Program-made: the position numbers and the translations under genes
Shown here: positions 5,008-42,365 of the stretch, in pieces
How the letters are laid out: every line of letters starts with the position of its first letter
Position numbering within the stretch: the stretch's first letter is position 1
IMG/VR virus record: IMGVR_UViG_3300027852_000019
Source of the DNA: a virus
Direction: 5' to 3' (one strand)
DNA length: 42,365 nucleotides
The notes under the pieces: model-generated
What the model was told of the DNA's origin: nothing
Databases searched by the model: none
Seen by the model: only the letters and a program-made list of their open reading frames with translations

Positions 5008-5036
5008 ATTATATCATACGCTATTGCCATTGTCAA
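5008..5036 (-). promoter_or_regulatory. Near-consensus sigma-A/sigma-70 promoter, leftward.
   Basis: The minus strand reads TTGACA (5036..5031), a 17-nt spacer, then TATAAT (5013..5008) preceded by TGA (extended -10). The inverted repeat GCTATTG-N7-CAATAGC (5020-5040) overlaps the -35. Confidence 0.7.
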
Positions 5037-5183: not shown

Positions 5184-5215
5184 GTTGACAATCCCTGGTA
5201 TATGTGCTATTATTG
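5184..5215 (+). repeat. Left copy of an imperfect direct repeat flanking the moron-like island.
   Basis: GTTGACAATCCCTGGTATATGTGCTATTATTG compared with 6155-6193 GTTGACATAACAATCCTGGGTACGGCTGCTAGTATTATG. Shared blocks: GTTGACA, ACAATCC, TGG(G)TA, TGCTA, TTAT. Confidence 0.45.
5185..5213 (+). promoter_or_regulatory. Sigma-A promoter, rightward, for ORF 5280..5882.
   Basis: TTGACA (5185-5190), a 17-nt spacer, then TATTAT (5208-5213) preceded by TGC (extended -10). Confidence 0.65.
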
Positions 5216-5279: not shown

Positions 5280-5882
5280 ATGGAAGCAAAAGCACTCGAG
5301 TCTCAAATTGTCGAGGCTCAAAAAGCACTCACCCAAGCTAGAACTGGACTCATGGCTGCATATCAAGCGAATGATACAACTCAAATCACCGAATTCGAGG
5401 GGTTTGTCGAACATGCAAAGAAGCTTGTAGCAATGGCTGAATTGGCAAGGGATAAAGCTATTGAGGAAGGCTTGGCAGGTGAGAGGGAAGCGTTAGGCAT
5501 TGCCATATTCGAGGCTATCAAGGACGTGAGCGTTAATGGCAAAAAGCTAAAGGTACAACTCGAAGCTGTCAAAGCTACAGGGTTCGCTTTCAAGCTTCCC
5601 GATGGCCAAAGCGACACAGCAAGGGTAGCATTGACGGTTCCAGGGATCCCAGGCACACACAAAGCATCAAGCGGCAATGGTGGCAATCGTGGCGAAATGC
5701 AAGCGAAATTCGGCGTAACATTGGATCAAGCGTATAATGCCTTTAAGGAACCAGAGGACGAAGCGTTATTCAATGCAGCCGAATTGCTCGAAACAAAGCC
5801 TCGCAATAGCAAGCAATGGACGATCAAAAATGCTGTAAGGAACCGTGCTATTGCTGATGGGCGATTAAGGCCAACAAGCTGA
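5280..5882 (+). CDS. Hypothetical protein: the cargo of a moron-like cassette on the opposite strand to its neighbours.
   Basis: 200-aa ORF with its own promoter and intrinsic terminator. G+C is higher than the flanks. The SD is weak and atypical (AAAGGACGG). I recognise no family. Confidence 0.8.
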   Translation: MEAKALESQIVEAQKALTQARTGLMAAYQANDTTQITEFEGFVEHAKKLVAMAELARDKAIEEGLAGEREALGIAIFEAIKDVSVNGKKLKVQLEAVKATGFAFKLPDGQSDTARVALTVPGIPGTHKASSGNGGNRGEMQAKFGVTLDQAYNAFKEPEDEALFNAAELLETKPRNSKQWTIKNAVRNRAIADGRLRPTS

Positions 5883-5896
5883 ACAATGTATAAACG

Positions 5897-5927
5897 AGGG
5901 AGCCTAGTTGTCGGGCTCCCTTTTTTA
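5897..5927 (+). terminator. Rho-independent terminator.
   Basis: AGGGAGCC (5897-5904) pairs with GGCTCCCT (5914-5921) across a 9-nt loop and is followed by a T run (5921-5926). It lies 15 nt after the stop of 5280..5882. Confidence 0.8.
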
Positions 5928-5940
5928 TTGCTCATTGAGT

Positions 5941-7530: not shown

Positions 7531-7559
7531 ATTATATCACGTTTTGCCAGCTTTGTCAA
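7531..7559 (-). promoter_or_regulatory. Consensus sigma-A promoter, leftward early.
   Basis: The minus strand reads TTGACA (7559..7554), 17 nt, then TATAAT (7536..7531) preceded by TGA. Confidence 0.75.
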
Positions 7560-7578
7560 ATTTACATTACATAATGCC

Positions 7579-7607
7579 TTGACAAATGTATAATCACATG
7601 TTATAAT
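7579..7607 (+). promoter_or_regulatory. Consensus sigma-A promoter, rightward. It drives a leaderless ORF.
   Basis: TTGACA (7579-7584), 17 nt, then TATAAT (7602-7607) preceded by TGT. The ATG of 7613..8101 begins 5 nt after the -10. Confidence 0.75.
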
Positions 7608-14988: not shown

Positions 14989-16655
14989 AAACCAAGATAC
15001 TAAAAGAATGTATAGACCTAGAAAAATCCTGGTCTGAGAGGAATAAGCAAATCAGGTATTGGTATGATATACTATTACTAACTAACAACCTATACCAAGA
15101 AGGCATGGAGTCAGTTATAGCTAACGACCCAAGAGTTGCTTATAACCTCTCAGTATATCTCATAAAATCCGCCATAATAGCTCACAAAATGCCTACAGAA
15201 GGTCTAGAAATGCAAGAGATAGTAGATACCAGCAGCATCGAGCAATTCTTTGCCAGACAATGGGGAGAATTAGATGAAGGCCAGAGGAGAATAGGCAGGC
15301 AGTCCTGGCTAAGATATCAAACTGCCCTGACTGTAGCTACTGGCTGGTATTCTGTACTAGCTCTAGCTACTCCAGACAAACTAATTGCTGAAACTTGGAA
15401 CCCAATAGAAGTCTTTCCACACTTCTCCAGAGACCCAGAGATTGGTATGGATAAATGCGCCCATATATATTCTCTTACTTCCAGTGAGGCTAACCGCAAA
15501 GCTAAGTTAAATAACTGGGTACTTCCAAGGTCATTTGTTGGTGATGTTAAGGTATATAACTATTACTTCATAGACGAGGATGGTGACCCATCTAATACCG
15601 TACTGATGAATAATGTTATAGTAATCCCTCCATTCAAGCTGAACCCAACTATCCAGGCATCTAATAGACTTCCAATCTTTGTGTCCCCAGTTGGTGGACT
15701 TCCTGACGATGGTGCTATAGTAACCAAACAAACTAGCTGGCAGAAACACTTTGGTGAGAGTATAATAGCCACCGACGCAGAGGAATTCAACAACCAAAAC
15801 AAGATGCTAACCTACGTCCAGCAGACAGTAAGAGACACAGCAACTCCTCGCTGGTTTGAAAGATCCACAGGCGGTAATATATTAACTCCAGAAACATTGT
15901 TTAGGCGTGGAACTATATACCGAGGTGGTCCTAATGATAGTATAGACCCATTGCCAGTTCCTCCAATGCCACTTGAGCTTAGGACTATACTCTTTGACTA
16001 TAGTAATCGTATCCAGCGAGGCTTATTTCCATGGACGTTGTTAGGTAATATCCAAGGCCAGATGTCTGGTTATATGATGAGCCAGGTAGCTTCTTCCTCC
16101 ATGTCTTCTCTAGCTCCCTATGCAGATGGAATTAGAGACCTACTAACCGATATAAACAACTACTGGTTGTATGAGATGAGAGAAAGAAACATCTCCATAC
16201 GAGGATTTACCATACCTAAAGAAACTCCAAAAGATATTAAATTCAAAGTCAGTCTAAACGTCAACATACCAGGCAGTTTAGTCCAGCGAGCTACAATAGC
16301 TAAGATACTCAATCCACAACTGCGATTTGACTTTGCTACCACTTGTGACTTGATGTTCCCAGAGATAAACAATCCTATAGAAATCCAAGCAAGAGTTAAT
16401 AAAGATGAAGCTGTGATGGGTGAAGTAGCTCAAGCAGTTGCCCTAATAGAATCTTACAGAGAAGTAGCTAAAATGTCTAGGGAGTCTGGCGATACTACAA
16501 CCGCTGACCTTTATGAAAAAGCAGCAAACTCACTGGAAGCTCAAATGTCCACTCCACAAGTACCAACTACTGCTCAACCTACACGTCCAAAGGAAATGAG
16601 GTCAGCAATTCCACGGGAAGAAACAATGCCAGAAGAGTTTGAAGGAGGTGTCTAA
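14976..16655 (+). CDS. Portal protein, inferred from position and size.
   Basis: 559-aa ORF following TerL, with SD TGGAGGGATAAA before the ATG. No motif-level proof. Confidence 0.65.
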   Translation: MPDIKTKILKECIDLEKSWSERNKQIRYWYDILLLTNNLYQEGMESVIANDPRVAYNLSVYLIKSAIIAHKMPTEGLEMQEIVDTSSIEQFFARQWGELDEGQRRIGRQSWLRYQTALTVATGWYSVLALATPDKLIAETWNPIEVFPHFSRDPEIGMDKCAHIYSLTSSEANRKAKLNNWVLPRSFVGDVKVYNYYFIDEDGDPSNTVLMNNVIVIPPFKLNPTIQASNRLPIFVSPVGGLPDDGAIVTKQTSWQKHFGESIIATDAEEFNNQNKMLTYVQQTVRDTATPRWFERSTGGNILTPETLFRRGTIYRGGPNDSIDPLPVPPMPLELRTILFDYSNRIQRGLFPWTLLGNIQGQMSGYMMSQVASSSMSSLAPYADGIRDLLTDINNYWLYEMRERNISIRGFTIPKETPKDIKFKVSLNVNIPGSLVQRATIAKILNPQLRFDFATTCDLMFPEINNPIEIQARVNKDEAVMGEVAQAVALIESYREVAKMSRESGDTTTADLYEKAANSLEAQMSTPQVPTTAQPTRPKEMRSAIPREETMPEEFEGGV

Positions 16656-19600
16656 TGCCAGATGGATTTGGAGACCAACTAAAAAAGTGGCAGCAAGAAG
16701 CTGAATCCAGCTTCAGTCAATTACAGGAGATTGAGACTCAAGCTGGTAATCCGCCACCTGAAAAAGATAAGCCTTGGTGGAAAACCATGCTAGGTGGTTT
16801 TGGCCTTGCAATTCCACCACTAGGACTATACCAATATGCAAAGGCAGCTTTCAAACCAAAACCTGGAGCAGAAGTAGCTAAACTAACCAAGCAAAGAGAT
16901 GATGCACTAGCTAACTATTCCACAGCTACCTGGTTTGCGGATGCGTATTCTGCTACTCCAGCAGGATTAAAAGCGGCTGGTATCACCAGCTTCACCGATT
17001 ATATGAAGAAAGACCCACCAGGTCCAACTGTTGCTCCTGCTGAGTTAGCTAAAGCTAAGAAATACATAGACTCAATTCTCCTAGGCACTGAGGAAGAAGC
17101 TATAACCTACCCTAAAGAACTTGCGAAGGATTGGATTACTGAGCCACTAGAAACTAGACCCAAATTCCAAGGCATACATTTAACTACCGTTCAAGAAATG
17201 ATAAAATGGTTAAGTAAACAAGCTCCTCAGCCAATAGTTCCAGAAAACCTAGGCAATGAGGGTCTGATGGAATACCTTAAAGACCAAGGCTGGGATGAAG
17301 AGCAACTGGCAGAAATTGAAGCACAAGTTACAGAAACTTGGGGTTCTATGTTTGATGAACACCGTTCAGAAAGAGAACAAATTAGACGCTACCAAGCTGG
17401 CATAGATACTCCCCAAATGCCAGATGAGACTTGGAAAGAAAAACTAGCCCGTGCTGGTTCTCAACCTGCCCTTGCTGCTTTGGATGCACTTGGCCTTTAC
17501 TGGAAAGCAGTTGAAGAACCAATAGCTGCATTGACAACTTATTCAATAGCTAACCTACCACCAGCACTATTACCAATCAAACATATAGGAACAATATCTG
17601 AAACCCAAGAACTATTGCGTGATGAGTTAAAAACCTTACATAAATATCATATAGATGAAGGTACAAACTGGTGGACTGCATGGGGTAAAGCATGGCATGA
17701 CTTGGAAGCACCAGAGTGGGCTAAGATATCCATGGAAATAGTTGCAGACCCACTCAACCTTATAGGCTTTGGCTGGTTCACAAAACTAGCTCATGCTACT
17801 AAAGCTATTCCAGTAGTAGGTAGATTTACTGGCTTAATGGGAGCAGTAGAACGAGGCTGGATAGCTGCTGCTGAGTATCCACTAATTAAAGCAAGAGCGG
17901 CGTATAGAAGGATACCATTAACCAGAGGCCAGAAAACTGCATTTGCTGAGTTTAATAGCGATAATATTATAACATCTGCAACTGGCCAACATTTCAGTTC
18001 CAAAGGCGGAATGAAACATATTCCGCAAGAAGATTTTACCAAGCATAACCTAAGTGCTATAGATGAAGTCTTAGATAATCCAGAAACTCTAGGCTATACT
18101 GGTGACTTGGGTAGGAACTTCCTTGATAGACCTCCAATGACACAGGATGACTTTACAGACTGGGCTGGAAAACTCAGTTCATCCTTAACTCCAGCTGATA
18201 TTACTCCACAAACCCTCTTTATGTTTGAGGAGTTAATAGAATCAGCAGCAGTTAGAGGTAGTCTGCGACCTGCCAAGAGCCTTGAAAAAACTGCTCAGGA
18301 ACTTCTCAGGCTAGTATTTAATGTAGCAGACTCACCAGAAAATATGAAGATAGCTGAGAACTTAATAGAAGGTATATATACCAGAACCATAAGGATAGCC
18401 AAAGGTATAGCTTCCATGCCAAAAGCGCAATGTCTAAGACAAGCAGCAAAGAAAGCAGGGAAGATAGTCCTAACTACCAGCTACGCAGATGACTTTAACT
18501 TTAAGTTCCATCATGGTGTATGGAGTGGCATCTTGGGTGAATACAGGCGCACTGCCAACATCTGGGCTAATACCATGGATAAACACCTAATAATGCCATT
18601 TGCCAGAGCCTATCTAGTAACTGCCTCCTACATGCCATGGAACTGGGGAGAAGAGGTAATGCGAACCTGGTTCGGTAGAGGTGGACTTATATATGGTAAA
18701 AACGCTCCAGTTAGGCTAGAATACCTATCCACTGGTTTAACACTTGACCGTAAAATATTTCAAGATGGAGTACCACTAGCCAAGGAAAGATATAGGGATA
18801 TGCCAAAGATACTAGCTAAGGAAGGTAAGCCAGGTATCGGCGAGATGTCTGAGGCAGTAGAAAGAGAATATGGTAAAGGTCCACTAGAAAAGCTCTTGTT
18901 ATATGGCTGGCATCCTAAGATGAATAAGTTCCATGAAGCTCTTTACTTTCCAATCAGAGGTTCTCAATGGGCTGGAGGAATAGAACGTTCTGGCTTTACA
19001 ACTTCTCGCTGGCTACAGCACTTAGATGAGATGGCTCCAGATGCTGTGAAAGGAATCAAAGCAGCAGTTGGTACAGTAGATGACATACCACAAGTAATTG
19101 GAACTACAAAATCACTTAGGAATGGTTTCTACAAACAAGTTAATGATGCTGCACATCTTGGTCCAAATGCAGTTAGGAGCATACCAGACAAGTTTACCTT
19201 CAAGGAAATAAGACTAGCTGAGGTTGCAGAAGCTAGAACTAAGTATGCAGATATTGGCACCGCTGGTGACTATATAATGTCCAGGGCTGAGATTGGTGAC
19301 TTGTGGAGTGATATTCCTGGTCATTTTACAAAAGCTAAGGATAAACTAGCTGATAACTTCCTCCATGCGCCAGAAACTAAGATGGCTAACTATAAAACAC
19401 TAATAGATGACTTGTTAGAAAAAGCAGAAGCTACTCCAAACAAAGAGCATCTATTAGCATTAGTACAAACACTCCGAGAACTATCCGATGATGCACCTGA
19501 AACCATCCATGCAGTCTTTATGGCATTTGGTGAAAGGTCAGCTGGTATAACTTCCGAAGCAGGTAGAAACGCACTTTGGAATGATGCTTATCCTAGGATA

Positions 19601-22600
19601 GCTCCATTCTTAGATGAAGTAGAAAAGCAAGCTAATAGACTAGCCACTCATATTCGTGACCAGTCTGGCAGTGATATACTTACCAAGCTGCAATGGGATG
19701 AAGTAGATAACACCATAACTCAATATATGAATAGAGTGAGTAAGATAGTAGATACCAGACACAAAGCAGATTTAGAGAGAACTATTCTCCTAGAACGTGG
19801 AGTTGGCCCAGGTACTCCAGAATGGCAAGACGAACTTGGTAAAATTTGGTTTGAACATCATACAGTAGACTCCGAGTTAGCAGCTAATATGGACGTACAG
19901 CAAAAAATACTTAGCAACAAGATAACTCCACAAGACATACCTACTCCACGTATAGATGCTTCTGGTAGAGGTTTAACTCCAGCCGATGTAGCTCCGCTGT
20001 TTCTAAGTACTGGTGACCAATTATCCTATGCTATGATGCAATCCAGTGCTATGAGACCAAAGATGTACTTCACTGCCCATGTTAAGAAGAAAGCTACCGA
20101 GATGGCCAATGTATATAATACTACCAGACAAGCACTAGGATTTACAGACCAAGGTATAAGTGATGTTTATGACCAGCTAATTTATGGTCTAAGGTCTAGC
20201 CCAGAGTTTCATAATATACTTACTCCAAAATTTGCTGAGTTAGATAACCTTGCTATGGATATAGAAGCAATTAGAATAAACAAAGCTCTGGATCCAAGGC
20301 TAACTAAAGTGTATAAAGAATACGCAGAAGGGGTAGCTACTAAGTTAGAAAAGCTGGATATATATAAGAAACCAGAGCCTATAGTTGAGCCACCAACAAA
20401 GGGTGACTTGGAAGACATTAAAGGTTTTCTTGCTGAGCCTATTATACCTAAAGCTACAGAGGGTATGCCAGAACCTTGGGAGATGACTAAGGCAGAGTGG
20501 AGGAATACTCAGTTACTTCCTGTTACTAGACCTTTTTCTACCATACTAAGGGAAGGGGAAATAAATTATACCAAAGGTTCTGTATTTCATGGAACTGGTG
20601 TAGAGGCAATGCAGAACATAATAGAAAAGGAATCTATACAACCTTTGGTATCTAGAGGTGATAAGTTAGGAGAGGCAGTAGTATCAATGTCCCAGATTGA
20701 GAAAGTTGCTGACGATTTTGGGGTGGTTACTATTGAACTTCGAGATAGAGGATATGTAGAAAGAAGATTAGCTTGGGAGGGTGATTGGGTTAAGGGTATG
20801 GAAGTAGTATCAAAAGATGCTATACCCTTGTCAGATATAAAGGGAGTTACATTCACTTTGGGTGCTAAGGAGGACTTATTATGGAAAGACCCGATTAGTG
20901 GAATAACATTAGACTCCTTAAAGAAGCAAATAGAAAACAAGGGAATTAAAGTAACTGTCAAGAAAGTTCAAACACATAAGGATTTGATAGTGCAAGCACT
21001 TAAGGAAGGCAAGCCAGTTCCAGCACATGTATTAAAAGACTACCCTGAGTTGGGTAAGGCTGTACCACTGGATATACGCAAAGAACCAACAACACTCCGA
21101 GAAGGTACAGATGATTGGTGGAAAACCAAGCAAGATGCAATGGATGCAACTATGAAAGAATACTATCACGAATTTACCGACTATACCAATGCCAACTCTG
21201 CTGACTTGTTTATGAGGAATGTATTTCCCTACTGGCAATATGAGTCCCAGCGTTGGTTCTGGCTACCTAGAAACTTCCTAACTCATCCAGGTGTATTTAA
21301 TATCTGGGGTAAACATATGGATAACTCTGACTATGGCTACCTTCATGTACCTGGCACCAACCTTGAATTTAATTTAACCAGAGGTTCTATATACAAAGGT
21401 GGGATGTCTACCCTAGTCCGTAGAGATTACCCAGAATATTATGACCAATACTTCCCAGAGTTCTTTGAGACTGTAGACTATGCTGAACGCTTTGGCTTCT
21501 TTCCCAATGTATTTTGGGGTACTCTAATAAATACATTTGGAGGCAGAGAACCACAACTAGGACAGCAAATGCCAGCGATAGTTAGAACTCCATTGGATAT
21601 ATACGTGGCTGCAAATCCAGACTCTAAAATAGGTAAAGCACTTCAAGAAACTCTATTCTCAGATAGGTTCAGAGACTACCTAATAATGTGTAATGTAGAA
21701 CATATAGCTTCTGCTGACCAAATCCAACGTAATATCAATGGTGAAACTATCTGGAATAAGATGGAAACCCACCAAACATTAACAGATGAAGAGCAAGCAC
21801 TATGGGATAGAGCTAGGCAAAAAGTAGCAATGGTGTCACCACTCTTAGAACATGGTGGCATCTTCCGCATGAGGCATCAAGATAGAATAGAAGCATACAA
21901 TATGATGGGAGAATTCGTTGAAGAAATAACTGGCGTGTCTGTAGAAATGCAGGACAATCTAAGGCGTCATGGGTATTCAGTAGGTGATGTGTGCAGCGGG
22001 TTATCCCAGCAAGATATGCTACTCTTAGAAGAAGCTCTAGAATACAAACGCTGGTTAAGTCCTCGTCTTACAGCATCTTTACGTCCGTCTAATGAGATAG
22101 AAGTAAATCTAATACTCAGTGAGTTCTGGAATGAGGTTAAATTACATTCCGAAACTAATAGAGAAGAACTAAAAAGAGTTGAATCTCAAGCATTTAGAGG
22201 TGAAGGTGGCTGGATATCCAAGTCTGACTATATAGACAAGGCTAGAGGTATCATGTCTGACAATGCTAGGTTCATCCACAGCCTTCATGGAGATAAATAC
22301 AACCAAGCTACTGGCCAGTGGGAATCAAACCCAAATGCTAACACTAAATTTTCTATGGTTCCTGTAACCATGGGAGAACGTGCTGAGTTTTACACTGAGC
22401 GTGGAGTTAACCTATCCATGTCTACCTTCGACGAAATGCTGGCTGAGTGGTACCAGCTATCTCCAAAGCAAAAAGTAGACCCAGTAACCAATACAGTAGA
22501 AACAGACTGGGGTACATACTTCGCAACCATGGATGTGATAAGAACTATGATGCCAGATGACTTGCGGCGAGAATGGGATTCCTATCTCCAACGCAATTTT

Positions 22601-22969
22601 ACTCCAGGTTGGGCATTCTTCAAAGACTCCACTCAAAACTACCTAGTCCCATACTGGAATGTCTCGGATATAATTAAACAGGAACTATTCTCAACAGAGG
22701 AGCAAGCACTAATAGATGAATACTATAAAATTCACAAAATAGACCCAGATAGAACTCAAGAGATAATGGACATAACTCGGCCAGATGGTACCAAACTAAT
22801 AGCTCAATACAAATCTAAATCCTCAGATGCTAGACATAAACTCCGCCTAGTAAATCCTATGCTAGATGCTCAACTTCTATTCTGGAATAAAACTACAACT
22901 CTCTTAACTCCAGAAGCAGAACAGATGTATAACCAATTGGTTGAAACTAGCAGGAAACTAGGCCTGTAA
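16655..22969 (+). CDS. Giant 2104-aa virion-associated protein. Candidate internal/ejection or polyvalent protein.
   Basis: A single uninterrupted 6.3-kb ORF with SD GAAGGAGGTGTCTA before the ATG. It lies between the portal and scaffold genes and its start overlaps the portal stop (TAATG). Confidence 0.9.
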   Translation: MPDGFGDQLKKWQQEAESSFSQLQEIETQAGNPPPEKDKPWWKTMLGGFGLAIPPLGLYQYAKAAFKPKPGAEVAKLTKQRDDALANYSTATWFADAYSATPAGLKAAGITSFTDYMKKDPPGPTVAPAELAKAKKYIDSILLGTEEEAITYPKELAKDWITEPLETRPKFQGIHLTTVQEMIKWLSKQAPQPIVPENLGNEGLMEYLKDQGWDEEQLAEIEAQVTETWGSMFDEHRSEREQIRRYQAGIDTPQMPDETWKEKLARAGSQPALAALDALGLYWKAVEEPIAALTTYSIANLPPALLPIKHIGTISETQELLRDELKTLHKYHIDEGTNWWTAWGKAWHDLEAPEWAKISMEIVADPLNLIGFGWFTKLAHATKAIPVVGRFTGLMGAVERGWIAAAEYPLIKARAAYRRIPLTRGQKTAFAEFNSDNIITSATGQHFSSKGGMKHIPQEDFTKHNLSAIDEVLDNPETLGYTGDLGRNFLDRPPMTQDDFTDWAGKLSSSLTPADITPQTLFMFEELIESAAVRGSLRPAKSLEKTAQELLRLVFNVADSPENMKIAENLIEGIYTRTIRIAKGIASMPKAQCLRQAAKKAGKIVLTTSYADDFNFKFHHGVWSGILGEYRRTANIWANTMDKHLIMPFARAYLVTASYMPWNWGEEVMRTWFGRGGLIYGKNAPVRLEYLSTGLTLDRKIFQDGVPLAKERYRDMPKILAKEGKPGIGEMSEAVEREYGKGPLEKLLLYGWHPKMNKFHEALYFPIRGSQWAGGIERSGFTTSRWLQHLDEMAPDAVKGIKAAVGTVDDIPQVIGTTKSLRNGFYKQVNDAAHLGPNAVRSIPDKFTFKEIRLAEVAEARTKYADIGTAGDYIMSRAEIGDLWSDIPGHFTKAKDKLADNFLHAPETKMANYKTLIDDLLEKAEATPNKEHLLALVQTLRELSDDAPETIHAVFMAFGERSAGITSEAGRNALWNDAYPRIAPFLDEVEKQANRLATHIRDQSGSDILTKLQWDEVDNTITQYMNRVSKIVDTRHKADLERTILLERGVGPGTPEWQDELGKIWFEHHTVDSELAANMDVQQKILSNKITPQDIPTPRIDASGRGLTPADVAPLFLSTGDQLSYAMMQSSAMRPKMYFTAHVKKKATEMANVYNTTRQALGFTDQGISDVYDQLIYGLRSSPEFHNILTPKFAELDNLAMDIEAIRINKALDPRLTKVYKEYAEGVATKLEKLDIYKKPEPIVEPPTKGDLEDIKGFLAEPIIPKATEGMPEPWEMTKAEWRNTQLLPVTRPFSTILREGEINYTKGSVFHGTGVEAMQNIIEKESIQPLVSRGDKLGEAVVSMSQIEKVADDFGVVTIELRDRGYVERRLAWEGDWVKGMEVVSKDAIPLSDIKGVTFTLGAKEDLLWKDPISGITLDSLKKQIENKGIKVTVKKVQTHKDLIVQALKEGKPVPAHVLKDYPELGKAVPLDIRKEPTTLREGTDDWWKTKQDAMDATMKEYYHEFTDYTNANSADLFMRNVFPYWQYESQRWFWLPRNFLTHPGVFNIWGKHMDNSDYGYLHVPGTNLEFNLTRGSIYKGGMSTLVRRDYPEYYDQYFPEFFETVDYAERFGFFPNVFWGTLINTFGGREPQLGQQMPAIVRTPLDIYVAANPDSKIGKALQETLFSDRFRDYLIMCNVEHIASADQIQRNINGETIWNKMETHQTLTDEEQALWDRARQKVAMVSPLLEHGGIFRMRHQDRIEAYNMMGEFVEEITGVSVEMQDNLRRHGYSVGDVCSGLSQQDMLLLEEALEYKRWLSPRLTASLRPSNEIEVNLILSEFWNEVKLHSETNREELKRVESQAFRGEGGWISKSDYIDKARGIMSDNARFIHSLHGDKYNQATGQWESNPNANTKFSMVPVTMGERAEFYTERGVNLSMSTFDEMLAEWYQLSPKQKVDPVTNTVETDWGTYFATMDVIRTMMPDDLRREWDSYLQRNFTPGWAFFKDSTQNYLVPYWNVSDIIKQELFSTEEQALIDEYYKIHKIDPDRTQEIMDITRPDGTKLIAQYKSKSSDARHKLRLVNPMLDAQLLFWNKTTTLLTPEAEQMYNQLVETSRKLGL

Positions 22970-23060: not shown

Positions 23061-23089
23061 TTGACAAACGCATTATGTAATGTTATAAT
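23061..23089 (+). promoter_or_regulatory. Consensus sigma-A promoter upstream of the scaffold and capsid genes.
   Basis: TTGACA (23061-23066), 17 nt, then TATAAT (23084-23089) preceded by TGT. A second TTGACA lies at 23040-23045. Confidence 0.7.
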
Positions 23090-37144: not shown

Positions 37145-37927
37145 TCATATAATACTAGCTCCAGTGATTATACCTTCCTGCTCCATTATCTTACTATAAC
37201 TCGGGTCTTCAAATGGCAGTCCTACTAATGGAGCAGGTACAGACTCAGCTTCTACCTTACACCAAAATGACCCATTGTTTTTATAGGTATGTAGCATCCA
37301 ATCCGTACTATCCCCAAGTGAATTAAACCCAGACCTTTCCCTCTTTCCTGTCTTTGACTCTTCAACTCTGCCTGTCTTAGGGTTAGGCATTGGTTTATAT
37401 TCATCCCTGGAATGGTGTATAATTACCAGGTTTTTATCCCTAGCTCTTGCTTGGTATATTATACCTCTCATCCTGATGTTAGGTTCCCTGTATTCAATAG
37501 GTAATAAGCTGACTCTTAAATTCTCATTAGGTTTAGCATTACCAGCAGCATCTAATTGTAACTCTTGTTTCTCTTGCAAGTAGCTAGTACATATCAACTC
37601 CCAAAGCAGAGTACCTGTGTCTATTACTCCAGTTACCATCTCAGGCTTACTTAACAAGTTCTTAACATAGTCCTCTAGGAATTGATACCATAGTTCCTTC
37701 ATTCCAGTAACTATCTTAGATGGCCTAAAGCTAGGCTCTGCTTGGATTGGAGCTATAAATCCATGGTAGTCCACCAAGCCATCATTTATTTCCTGCTGAA
37801 ACTTCCACTTAGCTCGGTTGTATCCGCCAAGGTCAAGCTCGGCATAATACATTGGCTTAGGGAATGTAAGAGCTAGAGTGCTCTTCCCTGTCTTATCATC
37901 TCCCCATATTCCACAAACTATTGACAT
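37145..37927 (-). CDS. Sak4-like (AAA_24) RecA-family ATPase.
   Basis: 260 aa. N-terminal Walker A IWGDDKTGKSTLALTFPKP and Walker B-like GVIDTGT. SD GGGAGGTAAATA before the ATG. Confidence 0.7.
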   Translation of the reverse strand: MSIVCGIWGDDKTGKSTLALTFPKPMYYAELDLGGYNRAKWKFQQEINDGLVDYHGFIAPIQAEPSFRPSKIVTGMKELWYQFLEDYVKNLLSKPEMVTGVIDTGTLLWELICTSYLQEKQELQLDAAGNAKPNENLRVSLLPIEYREPNIRMRGIIYQARARDKNLVIIHHSRDEYKPMPNPKTGRVEESKTGKRERSGFNSLGDSTDWMLHTYKNNGSFWCKVEAESVPAPLVGLPFEDPSYSKIMEQEGIITGASII

Positions 37928-38826
37928 TATTTACCTCCCTGGTATAACATACCTTTCGGGCAATACATTGCAACCTCACAGTATCCTTGGCATCTCCTAC
38001 CATCCCAGCACTCCCTATTATCACATGGTTGTGGAAGAAATGTCTTATCTTCCTGGTATATTTCCAATGCTAATAGTAAAGCTCTGGCTTTCCTATCAAA
38101 GTATTGTTTAACATAGTCATCCTCTAACCTTTTTATTGGTATTAGTCTTATATTAAAATCAATACCTCTGCTAGTAGCTATTTGTGTATTACCATCTCTG
38201 ACTGTAACCTGTAATTGCATAGCTTTGATGTTTAATCCTCTGTCTTCTAGCTTAACTCTATAATTATTAAGCTGCATTTCCTCATTCCAAAGGTCTACAT
38301 TGTTAGGATTTACAGAGAATATACTTATCATCTTAGAAGTTCCAGCTTTACCCCACTTTCCAGATATCTTATACTTTGCTCCAGTTGGGTCAGGAGCCTT
38401 ATGTTCTACTAGACCAAGTGCTCTTGATACTCTATAACTACCCCAAGTTTTATAGTCAGTTAACAACCATGTACCATCAGACTCTGGTTCTAGTAAATCA
38501 AATATGTCTCTACCATCTGGAGACAGGGCTACCTCTGAGAGTAGCCCCATCTCCTTAGCTTCTGTACTTAGCATATCATGGTGTCCAGTTCCCAATAAAG
38601 CAAATGCTCTACTTTGTGGCTCTATGAAAAAGTCACGGGTTAACTTAAGGAACTCCTGCATTGTACCATTAAGTAACTGTGTGGTACTAGGTTGTCCATT
38701 CCATACACGCTCCTCACTGATAAGTTTGAGTGTTGGCAATGTAAGACACCTATGGTCACAATGGGATAGGCATTGTTCTACTGATACAATGTCTCCATCT
38801 GGGCATTGAAAAGCTACTAATGGCAT
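37927..38826 (-). CDS. PD-(D/E)xK nuclease of the Cas4/RecB-like type with Cys clusters.
   Basis: 299 aa. DLLEPESDGTWLLTDYKT (D...D-Y-K core), an N-terminal CLSHCDHRC cluster, and C-terminal CDNRECWDGRRCQGYCEVAMYC. Confidence 0.7.
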   Translation of the reverse strand: MPLVAFQCPDGDIVSVEQCLSHCDHRCLTLPTLKLISEERVWNGQPSTTQLLNGTMQEFLKLTRDFFIEPQSRAFALLGTGHHDMLSTEAKEMGLLSEVALSPDGRDIFDLLEPESDGTWLLTDYKTWGSYRVSRALGLVEHKAPDPTGAKYKISGKWGKAGTSKMISIFSVNPNNVDLWNEEMQLNNYRVKLEDRGLNIKAMQLQVTVRDGNTQIATSRGIDFNIRLIPIKRLEDDYVKQYFDRKARALLLALEIYQEDKTFLPQPCDNRECWDGRRCQGYCEVAMYCPKGMLYQGGK

Positions 38827-39657: not shown

Positions 39658-39855
39658 TTACCATTCTCTTACTATTGGACTCACTGATTGTATATCTACT
39701 ATTTCTTTCTTAATTGTATCTAATAATGCCTCCTTGACAACCATACTTATTGTCTTACCATGCTGTGCAGCTAGTACATGAACTTGCCTCCTTTCTTCCA
39801 TGGTCATATCTAGTACGACATGCCATTTTGCATTGTTCTCACTATTGGCTATCAT
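39658..39855 (-). CDS. Ribbon-helix-helix (CopG/Arc-like) transcriptional regulator, 65 aa from the promoter-proximal ATG.
   Basis: KWHVVLDMTMEERRQVHVLAAQHGKTISMVVKEALLD fits the strand-helix-helix pattern. The longer track ORF (to 39894) would begin inside the -35 hexamer. Confidence 0.65.
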   Translation of the reverse strand: MIANSENNAKWHVVLDMTMEERRQVHVLAAQHGKTISMVVKEALLDTIKKEIVDIQSVSPIVREW

Positions 39856-39865
39856 CTCAATATAC

Positions 39866-39894
39866 ATTATATCATGCCAGGCCAGGCTTGTCAA
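39866..39894 (-). promoter_or_regulatory. Consensus sigma-A promoter, leftward, for the RHH gene.
   Basis: The minus strand reads TTGACA (39894..39889), 17 nt, then TATAAT (39871..39866) preceded by TGA. The palindrome GCTTGTCAAGC (39886-39896) overlaps the -35. Confidence 0.7.
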
Positions 39895-39929
39895 GCTGAC
39901 ATAATGCCTAAAGCTTTATGACAAGCGTG

Positions 39930-39947
39930 AGCTTGACATTATGTATT
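39930..39947 (+). repeat. Left copy of the 18-bp direct repeat AGCTTGACATWATGTATT.
   Basis: AGCTTGACATTATGTATT here and AGCTTGACATAATGTATT at 40491-40508, a 17/18 match. Confidence 0.8.
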
Positions 39948-39961
39948 CGATATGATACAAT
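39933..39961 (+). promoter_or_regulatory. Sigma-A promoter, rightward. It drives the leaderless nuclease ORF.
   Basis: TTGACA (39933-39938), 17 nt, then TACAAT (39956-39961) preceded by TGA. The ATG at 39968 begins 6 nt after the -10. Confidence 0.7.
39937..39950. repeat. Left arm of a perfect 14-bp inverted repeat.
   Basis: CATTATGTATTCGA is the exact reverse complement of TCGAATACATAATG at 40421-40434. Confidence 0.9.
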
Positions 39962-39967
39962 GCTAAT

Positions 39968-40432
39968 ATGACAGTTAATACAACTGGTGGGATTAGGTTT
40001 GATGATAGCTACCACAAGGCTCATAGGGAAGCAAGTGCTAGGTATTGCAGGAATAATCCTGACAAAGTTAAGATGAATACACTTAGACAAAGAAAGCATA
40101 GAAGTGAGCATCTTGAGGAGCATAGAGAATACCATAAAAATTATCATAGAAACCAGCTTATTTTACTTAAGACTGGTCAATGGGTTAAAGCTGATTGTAA
40201 GCCTCCAAGACCAAAAGATGTATGTGATGTATGTGGTAAAGAAGCTAAGAAGTTGTACTATCACCACTGGGATGATAGCTTGCCAGAAGCTGGTATGTGG
40301 GTATGTCATACATGCCATGCTGGATGTGAGTTTGTTGATAAAGATTATCATACCAAATACCTTAGAACCAAGTCCATCATTATGACCCAGCATGACATAA
40401 AACAATCATCATGTATTGTATCGAATACATAA
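39968..40432 (+). CDS. HNH/Endonuclease-VII-like zinc-finger nuclease (putative). Opposite strand to its neighbours.
   Basis: 154 aa. CDVCGKEAKKLYYHHWDD...MWVCHTCHAGCE fits CxxC...HH...CxxC. The basic N-terminal region (YHKAHREASARYCRNNPDKVKMNTLRQRKHR) resembles the N-termini of EndoVII-family phage proteins. No SD is present. Confidence 0.55.
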   Translation: MTVNTTGGIRFDDSYHKAHREASARYCRNNPDKVKMNTLRQRKHRSEHLEEHREYHKNYHRNQLILLKTGQWVKADCKPPRPKDVCDVCGKEAKKLYYHHWDDSLPEAGMWVCHTCHAGCEFVDKDYHTKYLRTKSIIMTQHDIKQSSCIVSNT

Positions 40433-40434
40433 TG
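40421..40434. repeat. Right arm of the perfect 14-bp inverted repeat.
   Basis: TCGAATACATAATG overlaps the TAA stop (40430-40432). It also forms a local hairpin, ATGTATT (40411-40417) with AATACAT (40424-40430). Confidence 0.9.
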
Positions 40435-40490
40435 AGCTATATTGTTTGATACATATATATTATAACTACTCTATATGTATAATTTTTTAT

Positions 40491-40508
40491 AGCTTGACAT
40501 AATGTATT
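40491..40508 (+). repeat. Right copy of the 18-bp direct repeat.
   Basis: AGCTTGACATAATGTATT. No -10 hexamer follows at a 17-nt spacing. Confidence 0.8.
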
Positions 40509-41808: not shown

Positions 41809-42365
41809 CTATAATAATTTATTAAACTGTAGTGTCTTTCTATCTATTCCTATCTTTATATTTTTCACCTCCTCTTCAGCGTGCCGAGTCTTCTCAAAGG
41901 AGAGTATAACCTCGGCGTCTTTGCTGGTTTTTATTGTCCGAATTTGGGTGTCAAACCAATTTGACCACATACTACTGCCAAACATATCATCCTCGGATGT
42001 GTATGGCTGGCCATCTACTATCTGGGTCTTGCGGTCATGATGTATTAGGATTACAGCTACCTTGTATAGGTCTATTAGTCTATCTATCTCATTCTGGAAT
42101 ATGCGGACACCATCATCCTCGGTTAGCTTGCCTGATACTACCTTATACAATGGGTCTATGATTAGTACTTGAGGCAGGACGGATTGTAATTCTGTTTCCA
42201 TGTCACGGATGTATATGTTCTTGTCTAGTTTCATGTTAAACTCTGTGCGTAGGAATAATCTATCTGGGCGGAGACCATTACCATGAGAGTATTTAGACAC
42301 TCGCTTCTGGAACTTAGGTTTAGGTATCTCAATTTGCAAGGTATATACAGTCACTGGCTGAATAT
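41809..42365 (-). CDS. C-terminal part of the wrap-around RecA/DnaB-C-terminal-like ATPase (see 1..314).
   Basis: Walker B-like VLIIDPLYK, then AVILIHHDRK, which resembles the helicase-family H..K motif. The ORF is open to the right end of the window. Confidence 0.75.
   Translation of the reverse strand, partial: IQPVTVYTLQIEIPKPKFQKRVSKYSHGNGLRPDRLFLRTEFNMKLDKNIYIRDMETELQSVLPQVLIIDPLYKVVSGKLTEDDGVRIFQNEIDRLIDLYKVAVILIHHDRKTQIVDGQPYTSEDDMFGSSMWSNWFDTQIRTIKTSKDAEVILSFEKTRHAEEEVKNIKIGIDRKTLQFNKLL
42239..42365. repeat. Terminal direct repeat, right copy of 1-127.
   Basis: Exact identity to bases 1-127. Confidence 0.95.

Follow-up and report, generated by a model that had tools for sequence, protein, structure and literature searches.

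Positions 39930-40508 of the IMG/VR virus record IMGVR_UViG_3300027852_000019, a stretch of 42,365 nucleotides from an uncultivated tailed phage (hereafter the window), hold a small open reading frame (ORF), g154, which runs against the direction of its neighbors and is surrounded by inverted and direct repeats. Using sequence profile searches, structure prediction and comparison with related phages, we find that g154 codes for a divergent relative of the HNH/endonuclease VII (EndoVII) proteins. We consider it on balance probable, if by no means assured, that the region is an autonomous moron-like unit for a selfish HNH/EndoVII-like gene, made up of a promoter, a leaderless ORF and a terminator, and that it is embedded in copies of an operator-like motif rather than delimited by transposon ends. 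The unit is reverse-oriented within a hypervariable interval of the early/replication block of the phage. A preliminary description, made from the sequence alone, had presented it as a small mobile or homing nuclease cassette with terminal inverted repeats and a duplicated target. What it said of the protein, the promoter and the mobility of the gene is borne out by the results below; its interpretation of the repeats is not.

The g154 protein and its family

The g154 gene (39968-40432, + strand) codes for a protein of 154 amino acids, in which three N-terminal helices and a beta-hairpin are followed by a zinc-ribbon beta-beta-alpha core (residues ~86-124) and a C-terminal helix. The core carries the signature CxxC...YHHW...CxxCH. 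An exhaustive HMMER search recovered 787 cluster representatives at E <= 1e-3, with 152 at E <= 1e-10, and an alignment of 40 members revealed an invariant set of residues (C86, C89, Y98, H99, H100, W101, G109, W111, C113, C116, H117 and Y131) and the family consensus KRPRPDxxCExCG...LxYHHWDDxxPExGxWVCxxCHxxxE. The N-terminal region of the alignment is matched by the Sigma70_r4 helix-turn-helix (HTH) model of Pfam in 7 of the 40 members, and by other HTH models in fewer.

The preliminary description had called the protein HNH/EndoVII-like and proposed a check against Pfam and other profiles, and the two levels of comparison gave different answers. No HNH or Endonuclease_7 model of Pfam matches g154 at E <= 1, the rest of Pfam and NCBIfam offer no match either, and a single member out of the 40 reaches an HNH Pfam model (E 8e-3). 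Profile-profile comparison, the PHROG database and the predicted fold, on the other hand, uphold the assignment. The sole GenBank phage protein matched, and that weakly, is a P-RSP2 protein, which itself scores 7.5e-15 on PF02945; hhalign aligned the family profile with this protein at 95% probability (E 3.4e-8), placing H100 opposite the second residue (His) of the EndoVII DH pair and H117 opposite the Asn of CxxCN. Likewise, 18 of the 40 members match phrog_2340, annotated as 'endonuclease', and others match EndoVII/HNH PHROGs with E-values down to 8e-10. Given that the link is visible at the profile-profile level and in PHROGs only, g154 is to be regarded as a superfamily relative and not as a member of PF02945.

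A structural model computed with AlphaFold2 from the family alignment (pLDDT 93; the model from the single sequence, with a pLDDT of 42, was unusable) places beta-strands at residues 97-100 and 109-112 and an alpha-helix at residues 114-124. Its top matches in BFVD are proteins labeled 'Recombination endonuclease VII' and 'HNHc' (probability 0.96-1.0; local root-mean-square deviation 1.1-2.7 A over 40-56 residues). From the fold, profile and PHROG matches we conclude that g154 is a divergent His-Me-finger (HNH/EndoVII-fold) protein with its HH...H residues intact. Judged by sequence, H99, H100 and H117 may constitute an HH...H catalytic or metal-binding pattern, and the protein is a putative DNA endonuclease.

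The gene itself appears as a single, isolated sequence. A k-mer protein search with g154 returned g154 alone, and its protein cluster holds this one sequence, present on two contigs of 20-50 kb, of which the one shown matches the window. Among ~15 billion proteins there is no second copy above 43% identity, the next best protein being 43% identical. The possibility of a recent foreign arrival was rejected, as g154 does not depart from the rest of the genome in GC content (0.374 as against 0.39 ± 0.035) or in GC content at third codon positions (GC3).

Promoters and probable terminator of the unit

In line with the functional-looking promoter of the preliminary description, g154 was confirmed to have a strong promoter of its own. 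This promoter, P_right (39933-39961, + strand), combines the -35 box TTGACA (39933-39938), a spacer of 17 nt and the extended -10 element TGaTACAAT (-10 TACAAT at 39956-39961), and agrees with the sigma-70 consensus at 11 of 12 positions. The ATG at 39968 lies 6 nt past the -10, and the g154 mRNA is therefore predicted to be leaderless. The same geometry, an extended -10 with the ATG 6 nt after it, is found in family copies from the related loci L032, L045 and L046, so that with the window there are four cases of a family gene with its own promoter and a leaderless start. The promoters of g154 and of the L032 copy further share GCTTGACATWAT and a similar -10/start region.

Back-to-back with P_right stands P_left (39866-39894, - strand; TTGACA, 17 nt, TGaTATAAT, 12/12), which drives the ribbon-helix-helix (RHH) gene and the replication operon. 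Between the two -35 boxes lies an imperfect palindrome (39889-39938), within which are TGACATAATG (39897-39906) and a 10-bp palindrome, TAAAGCTTTA (39909-39918). The two belong to a set of seven near-consensus (11-12/12) sigma-70 promoters in the window, all with a TG extended -10 (5008-5036(-), 5185-5213(+), 7531-7559(-), 7579-7607(+), 23061-23089(+), 39866-39894(-) and 39933-39961(+)), which include three back-to-back divergent pairs. Several strong promoters, such as those of g154, w7613 and the RHH gene, are separated from an ATG by 5-10 nt, so that their mRNAs would be leaderless or nearly so.

The 3' end of the unit holds two AT-rich hairpins with fold z-scores of about -3. Hairpin A (40407-40434, + strand; z = -3.0) is a dyad of CATCATGTATT and AATACATAATG separated by 6 nt, which spans the stop codon and whose right half is the right arm of the inverted repeat described below. 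Hairpin B (40435-40494, + strand) has an outer stem AGCTATA/TATAGCT, an inner 9-bp stem (40449-40457/40472-40480) and a T-run at 40483-40488. It is likely a weak intrinsic terminator of g154 that acts on the + strand only; a scan for consensus terminators found nothing GC-rich at this position. As the - strand has no T-run at the hairpins, leftward read-through is to be expected.

The repeats and their shared motif

Both sets of repeats given in the preliminary description, namely 14-bp inverted ends and an 18-bp direct repeat, are present. The sequence CATTATGTATTCGA at 39937-39950 has its exact reverse complement at 40421-40434, where it overlaps the TAA stop codon of g154 (40430-40432). This inverted repeat is longer than first noted, being perfect over 16 bp (39937-39952/40419-40434) and matching at 21 of 23 positions in its extended form (39937-39959/40412-40434). 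Its left arm (39937-39959, + strand), which begins with CATTATGTATT and includes the first copy of the motif discussed below, lies within the spacer and the -10 of P_right. The direct repeat consists of AGCTTGACATTATGTATT (39930-39947, + strand) and AGCTTGACATAATGTATT (40491-40508, + strand), which are identical at 17 of 18 positions. As had been stated, only the left copy bears a promoter, since it comprises the -35 box and the first 9 nt of the spacer of P_right with its 11/12 extended -10, while the right copy has a -35-like TTGACA and the motif CATAATGTATT without a -10. The left 18-mer shares 11 bp with the inverted-repeat arm. The right 18-mer lies 56 bp beyond the other arm, with hairpin B in between; it begins within the last 4 nt of this hairpin, ends 5 nt short of the stop codon of a leftward 68-aa gene, and forms an inverted pair with 40424-40434 around hairpin B. 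Positions 40424-40508 can also be viewed as one large imperfect palindrome (motif on the - strand, hairpin B, TGA, motif on the + strand), which competes with hairpin A for 40424-40434, giving possible alternative RNA or DNA structures.

The inverted and direct repeats are not independent of each other, since the 11-mer CATNATGTATT, with the palindromic core ACATWATGT, is found inside both. The window has five exact copies of this 11-mer as against 0.27 expected (200 first-order Markov simulations; maximum 2), and four of the five are crowded into 39937-40508: one in the promoter spacer (39937(+)), two in the dyad at the stop codon (40407(+) and 40424(-)) and one past the terminator (40498(+)). 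A one-mismatch variant, CATTATGTAAT, occurs at 7566-7576(-), between the divergent 12/12 promoters P7559 and P7579, and at 23071-23081(+), in the spacer of the 12/12 promoter P23061. Moreover, the 10-mer ACATAATGCC is common to 7569-7578 and 39899-39908, in two divergent-promoter regions. The CATTATGTAAT and ACATAATGCC sites may represent a putative phage-wide operator. The presence of motif copies at other strong promoters speaks against the repeats being the ends of an element, and comes close to the explanation as regulator binding sites that the preliminary description had itself named as contrary to its proposal.

The longest perfect inverted repeat between 5' and 3' flanks was determined for 893 ORF-defined genes from the window and all fetched loci, and the 16 bp of g154 is the maximum among them. 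The flanking inverted repeats of 19 other family members, at 5-9 bp, are at the background of this set, against which their longest direct repeats (6-14 bp) are equally unexceptional. IMG/VR contains three occurrences of the 17-mer end sequence, each in an unrelated phage, and two of the three are intergenic and promoter-like.

Distribution of the family in related phages

As relatives we used 29 IMG/VR loci that share the replication module at ~33-58% amino-acid identity. In these (L003-L031) the interval between the AAA_25 gene and g213, in which the unit lies, varies from 287 bp to 2.8 kb and holds no homologue of g154, the RHH gene, g68 or g72; nor does any of the 29 have a family copy within ±8 kb of g299. 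The matches of a scan with the family signature include one of the 12 relative contigs of at least 40 kb (12 of the 29 loci), and this near-complete relative has two copies. Across the phage group, family copies occupy at least five intergenic sites besides that of the window, in both orientations and with 0-2 copies per genome. These are the junction of the giant structural gene and the w23113 homologue (co-oriented in L032 and L044; reversed in L045, where the copy has a divergent promoter pair to itself), the divergent-promoter region between the w6650 and w7613 homologues (one orientation in L046, the other in L050), a position upstream of the w13202 homologue (L057), the space separating the HhH homologue from that of g107 (L039) and a position following an AAA_25 gene (L038). 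The earlier suggestion of a mobile gene is thus supported. The copies, which often adjoin conserved strong promoters, are divergent paralogues at most 43% identical to g154. Two divergent copies each are found on IMGVR_UViG_3300031949_000079 (L045, L050) and in L037 (5001-5570 and 7102-7458), which is consistent with a proliferating selfish gene family. To judge from this sporadic, multi-site distribution, the family behaves as a free-standing gene that is either selfish (homing-type) or moron-like.

Relatives carry g154-family genes at both of the sites that hold CATTATGTAAT. ACATWATG was also considered as a conserved target site of the family and rejected, as it is not enriched around the copies in other phages. 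A scan of IMG/VR with g154 peptides and with g213 found nothing.

The RHH gene and a proposed mechanism

The RHH gene (39658-39855, - strand), which codes for a putative Arc/antitoxin-like protein of 65 amino acids with a probable start at the ATG at 39855, is the first gene of the leftward replication operon. It had been proposed that this gene has its own promoter owing to the splitting of the operon by the cassette. The relatives refute this: in all 10 that were checked a strong promoter (11-12/12) faces g213 in the same interval, even where this is reduced to 287 bp, and none of the 10 has the cassette. The RHH promoter is ancestral. No relatives of the RHH protein were found in the JGI metagenomes.

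We propose that g154 would be expressed from P_right as a leaderless mRNA terminated at hairpin B. Transcription from P_right would meet head-on that of the leftward operon, for which the AT-rich hairpins are probably no barrier. In this scheme the clustered CATNATGTATT sites would be operator-like or promoter-terminator sequences through which a phage regulator would repress P_right, possibly with looping over ~470 bp. This regulator is most plausibly the divergently transcribed RHH protein, a candidate binder of ACATWATGT-type motifs. The motif copies may additionally have supplied short homology for the recombination of the unit into this position or for its inversion, as with the PeSL elements discussed below, and an inversion between inverted motif copies would explain the exact bracketing of the reversed gene. 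Such are the regulator and the recombination history that we infer for the unit.

Several observations weigh against this account. With respect to the protein, the Foldseek E-values of the BFVD matches are weak (>= 8e-3), and in the PDB there was no significant match by sequence, nor anything below E 0.4 in a Foldseek search with the whole model. In the latter search the long helices probably swamp the small core; PDB searches with hidden Markov models from full-length and core-only profiles yielded only zinc-ribbon noise. With respect to the regulator, the RHH assignment comes from sub-threshold matches (DUF6290/Antitox_RHH/ParD at E ~5e-3 and the PHROG Arc-like repressor at 6e-3), and the lack of ACATWATG enrichment around family copies in other phages is unfavorable to the operator idea. 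The collections searched hold no close relative, the best g213 homologue being 59% identical and located on a 1.4-kb contig. Finally, a pure operator function leaves unexplained the precision with which a repeat that is the most extreme of 893 brackets the reversed ORF; the bracketing repeat is unusual and only partly explained.

Alternative explanations

The unit might instead be a transposon-like cassette resembling the MPMEs, in which the element codes for an enzyme that recognizes terminal inverted repeats of 14-23 bp, with the 18-bp direct repeats as a duplicated target. This we regard as very improbable, even though the inverted repeat is extreme and encloses the ORF exactly, related phages show the gene family to be mobile, and a size of ~500-580 bp with one small ORF is comparable to that of the 439-bp MPME1 with its IR-L and IR-R (PMC3029335). 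A target-site duplication must abut both ends of an element, and the observed geometry, with an overlap on the left and a gap on the right, therefore does not fit; a target duplication of 18 bp would also be unusually long. Such an 'element' would leave out the -35 box, given that its left arm is situated in the promoter spacer. Of the 19 other family members, 0 are flanked by inverted or direct repeats of this kind, no further copy of the protein exceeds 43% identity, the 17-mer end turns up only in the three unrelated phages, and the motif is not private to the locus, variants being present at two other strong promoters. HNH/EndoVII-fold proteins are not known to act as transposases. The geometry, the other family members and the 17-mer together thus do not support the initial proposal of terminal inverted repeats with a duplicated target. 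A bolder proposal, in which we place equally scant belief, is that a selfish nuclease is switched on and off (or between early and late) by inversion, with the 16-23-bp inverted repeats as crossover sites, or that the unit is a new HNH-carrying, ultra-small phage mobile element. The left arm being exactly in the promoter spacer, the bracketed segment contains the -10, the ATG and the ORF, with the -35 box outside. A flip would accordingly dismantle the consensus promoter and align the nuclease gene with the leftward operon, and the present orientation would assemble the promoter. Among the ~30 window proteins scanned with Pfam or PHROGs, of ~69 ORFs, there is no serine or tyrosine recombinase domain.

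A history of recombination is a tentative alternative to which we assign a minor but appreciable likelihood. PeSLs are strong sigma-70 promoters and stem-loops flanking ORFans, which mediate insertions and deletions and form mini-circles in T4-type phages (PMC2839356, PMC4122927). By analogy, the unit could have entered, or could leave as a mini-circle, through homologous or microhomology recombination between promoter-terminator modules, with the bracketing repeat left by an inversion that reversed the gene. An origin of this kind does not conflict with the moron-like unit and lays the stress on history over regulation. The direct repeats indeed consist of -35 and spacer sequence, each following a palindrome or a stem-loop; the interval is hypervariable in the relatives; family copies recur at conserved strong-promoter sites of the relatives; the g154 and L032 promoters have sequence in common, as noted above; and the phage has candidate recombination proteins (AAA_24 g260 and g299). 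Set against these are the presence of just two direct copies of 18 bp, as opposed to PeSL families of ~50 per genome, the absence of the 18-mer from the other five strong promoters of the window, and the genome-typical composition of g154, in which no recent arrival is visible. The repeats could alternatively act at the RNA level: in a leftward read-through transcript the two arms would pair as a 16-23-bp duplex and loop out a 452-nt antisense-g154 segment, the duplex serving as a processing (RNase III-type) or insulation element that couples convergent transcription to silencing of the nuclease. Read-through past the hairpins is expected on the - strand, P_right is head-on to the leftward operon, and both minimum-free-energy and centroid folds of the - strand RNA 40470->39900 close the long-range helix (z = -3.8). 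However, any perfect 16-bp inverted repeat pairs in a fold prediction, there are no homologous loci that could show covariation, and the left arm lies outside the g154 mRNA, so that we think such a role quite unlikely.

Relation to known systems

The moron-like unit that we favor has counterparts in several known systems. In the protein, the closest are the free-standing HNH/EndoVII phage nuclease genes (homing-type homing endonuclease genes; PF02945, PHROG 2340/2633/1035), with which g154 shares the small, zinc-stabilized beta-beta-alpha-metal core of the form CxxC...H-H...CxxC-H, profile and fold similarity, and a sporadic intergenic distribution of its family over multiple sites in variable copy number. 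The g154 family differs from these in its signature, which is YHHWDD...GxWxCxxCH and not DHDH...CxxCN, and in that no Pfam or NCBIfam model reaches it at threshold; g154 itself differs in its reverse orientation, consensus promoter, leaderless start and bracketing inverted repeat.

In the layout, the concept of the moron, an ORF with its own promoter and terminator inserted between the genes of a phage operon (PMC3029335), applies directly: the unit has a promoter, one ORF and a terminator, stands between two genes of the leftward block and is absent from the locus in relatives. Classic morons, however, are known from temperate phages and often carry host-fitness factors, whereas the cargo here is nuclease-like and selfish. 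The unit may resemble PeSL cassettes (PMC2839356, PMC4122927) in that sigma-70 promoter sequence and stem-loops flank a non-core ORF in a hyperplastic region, and the direct repeats of promoter sequence at g154 could likewise mediate excision or insertion. In contrast to those cassettes, there are two copies of the 18-mer, the right one lacking a -10, there is no genome-wide family of near-identical cassettes, and the stems are AT-rich instead of polyG/polyC. With MPME1 and MPME2 of mycobacteriophages (PMC3029335) the unit has the layout in common (~440-580 bp, short inverted repeats at the ends and one small ORF). MPMEs, however, are found as identical copies at different sites of near-identical phages with defined pre-integration sites, whereas g154 is a single copy without a relative above 43%; moreover, an inverted-repeat arm of the unit lies inside its promoter.

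Genomic setting

The window matches a 42,379-bp ENA metagenome contig (L002), of which it is a permuted copy. An AAA_25 gene spans its ends (41809-42365, continuing on 1-~200) and codes for 247 amino acids in L002, as against a shortened product of 181 amino acids in the window. It follows that the window represents, in permuted form, an assembly of ~42.4 kb that is either circular or terminally redundant. GenBank phages gave no DNA match to the locus or the window, and apart from the major head protein the window proteins have almost no PHROG matches. The interval from the AAA_25 gene to g213 is filled by six accessory ORFs (g72b, g182, g72, g68, g154 and RHH), for which no significant homologues were found in the relatives, the exception being one weak partial match to g182 in L005. 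Downstream of the RHH gene, the leftward replication operon codes for g213, g46, g299, an AAA_24 protein, a HhH protein, a methylase and a family A DNA polymerase. The 299-aa protein of the replication module (37927-38826, - strand), with a C-terminal cysteine cluster, CDNRECWDGRRCQGYCEVAMYC, and no Pfam or PHROG match, could be a candidate Cas4/RecB-like exonuclease.

Gene calls agree that g154 is the only + strand gene within its leftward block, as had been claimed. Further along the same block lies a second reverse-oriented gene (5280-5882, + strand), which codes for 200 amino acids and is conserved in L046. It is served by an 11/12 promoter of its own, with a leader of 66 nt, and by a terminator formed by a GC-rich hairpin and a T-run (5890-5928), and it lacks a bracketing inverted repeat. 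The notion that reversed genes of the window are generally bracketed by inverted repeats was rejected on this account, 5280-5882 having an ordinary GC-rich terminator only. Upstream of the head genes, 16655-22969 (+ strand) is a 2104-aa ORF, partly conserved in L032 (39% identity).

Significance

The search initiated from g154 delineates a sizeable phage family of HNH/EndoVII-like proteins (787 cluster representatives) with the signature YHHWDD and often an N-terminal HTH, which is covered by no Pfam or NCBIfam model. In one phage group its members are self-promoted, leaderless and site-hopping, making this a candidate new family of homing nucleases and an aid to the annotation of phage dark matter. 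To the free-standing HNH/EndoVII-type phage nuclease genes g154 adds a new, previously unannotated member, housed in a moron-like unit. The locus also calls for caution: where a small gene is surrounded by inverted and direct repeats, these can be a cluster of copies of one regulatory motif and not the ends of a transposon. If this motif is indeed an operator, the seven near-consensus promoters together with the ACATWATGT-type sites would sketch the regulatory circuit of an otherwise unannotatable phage.

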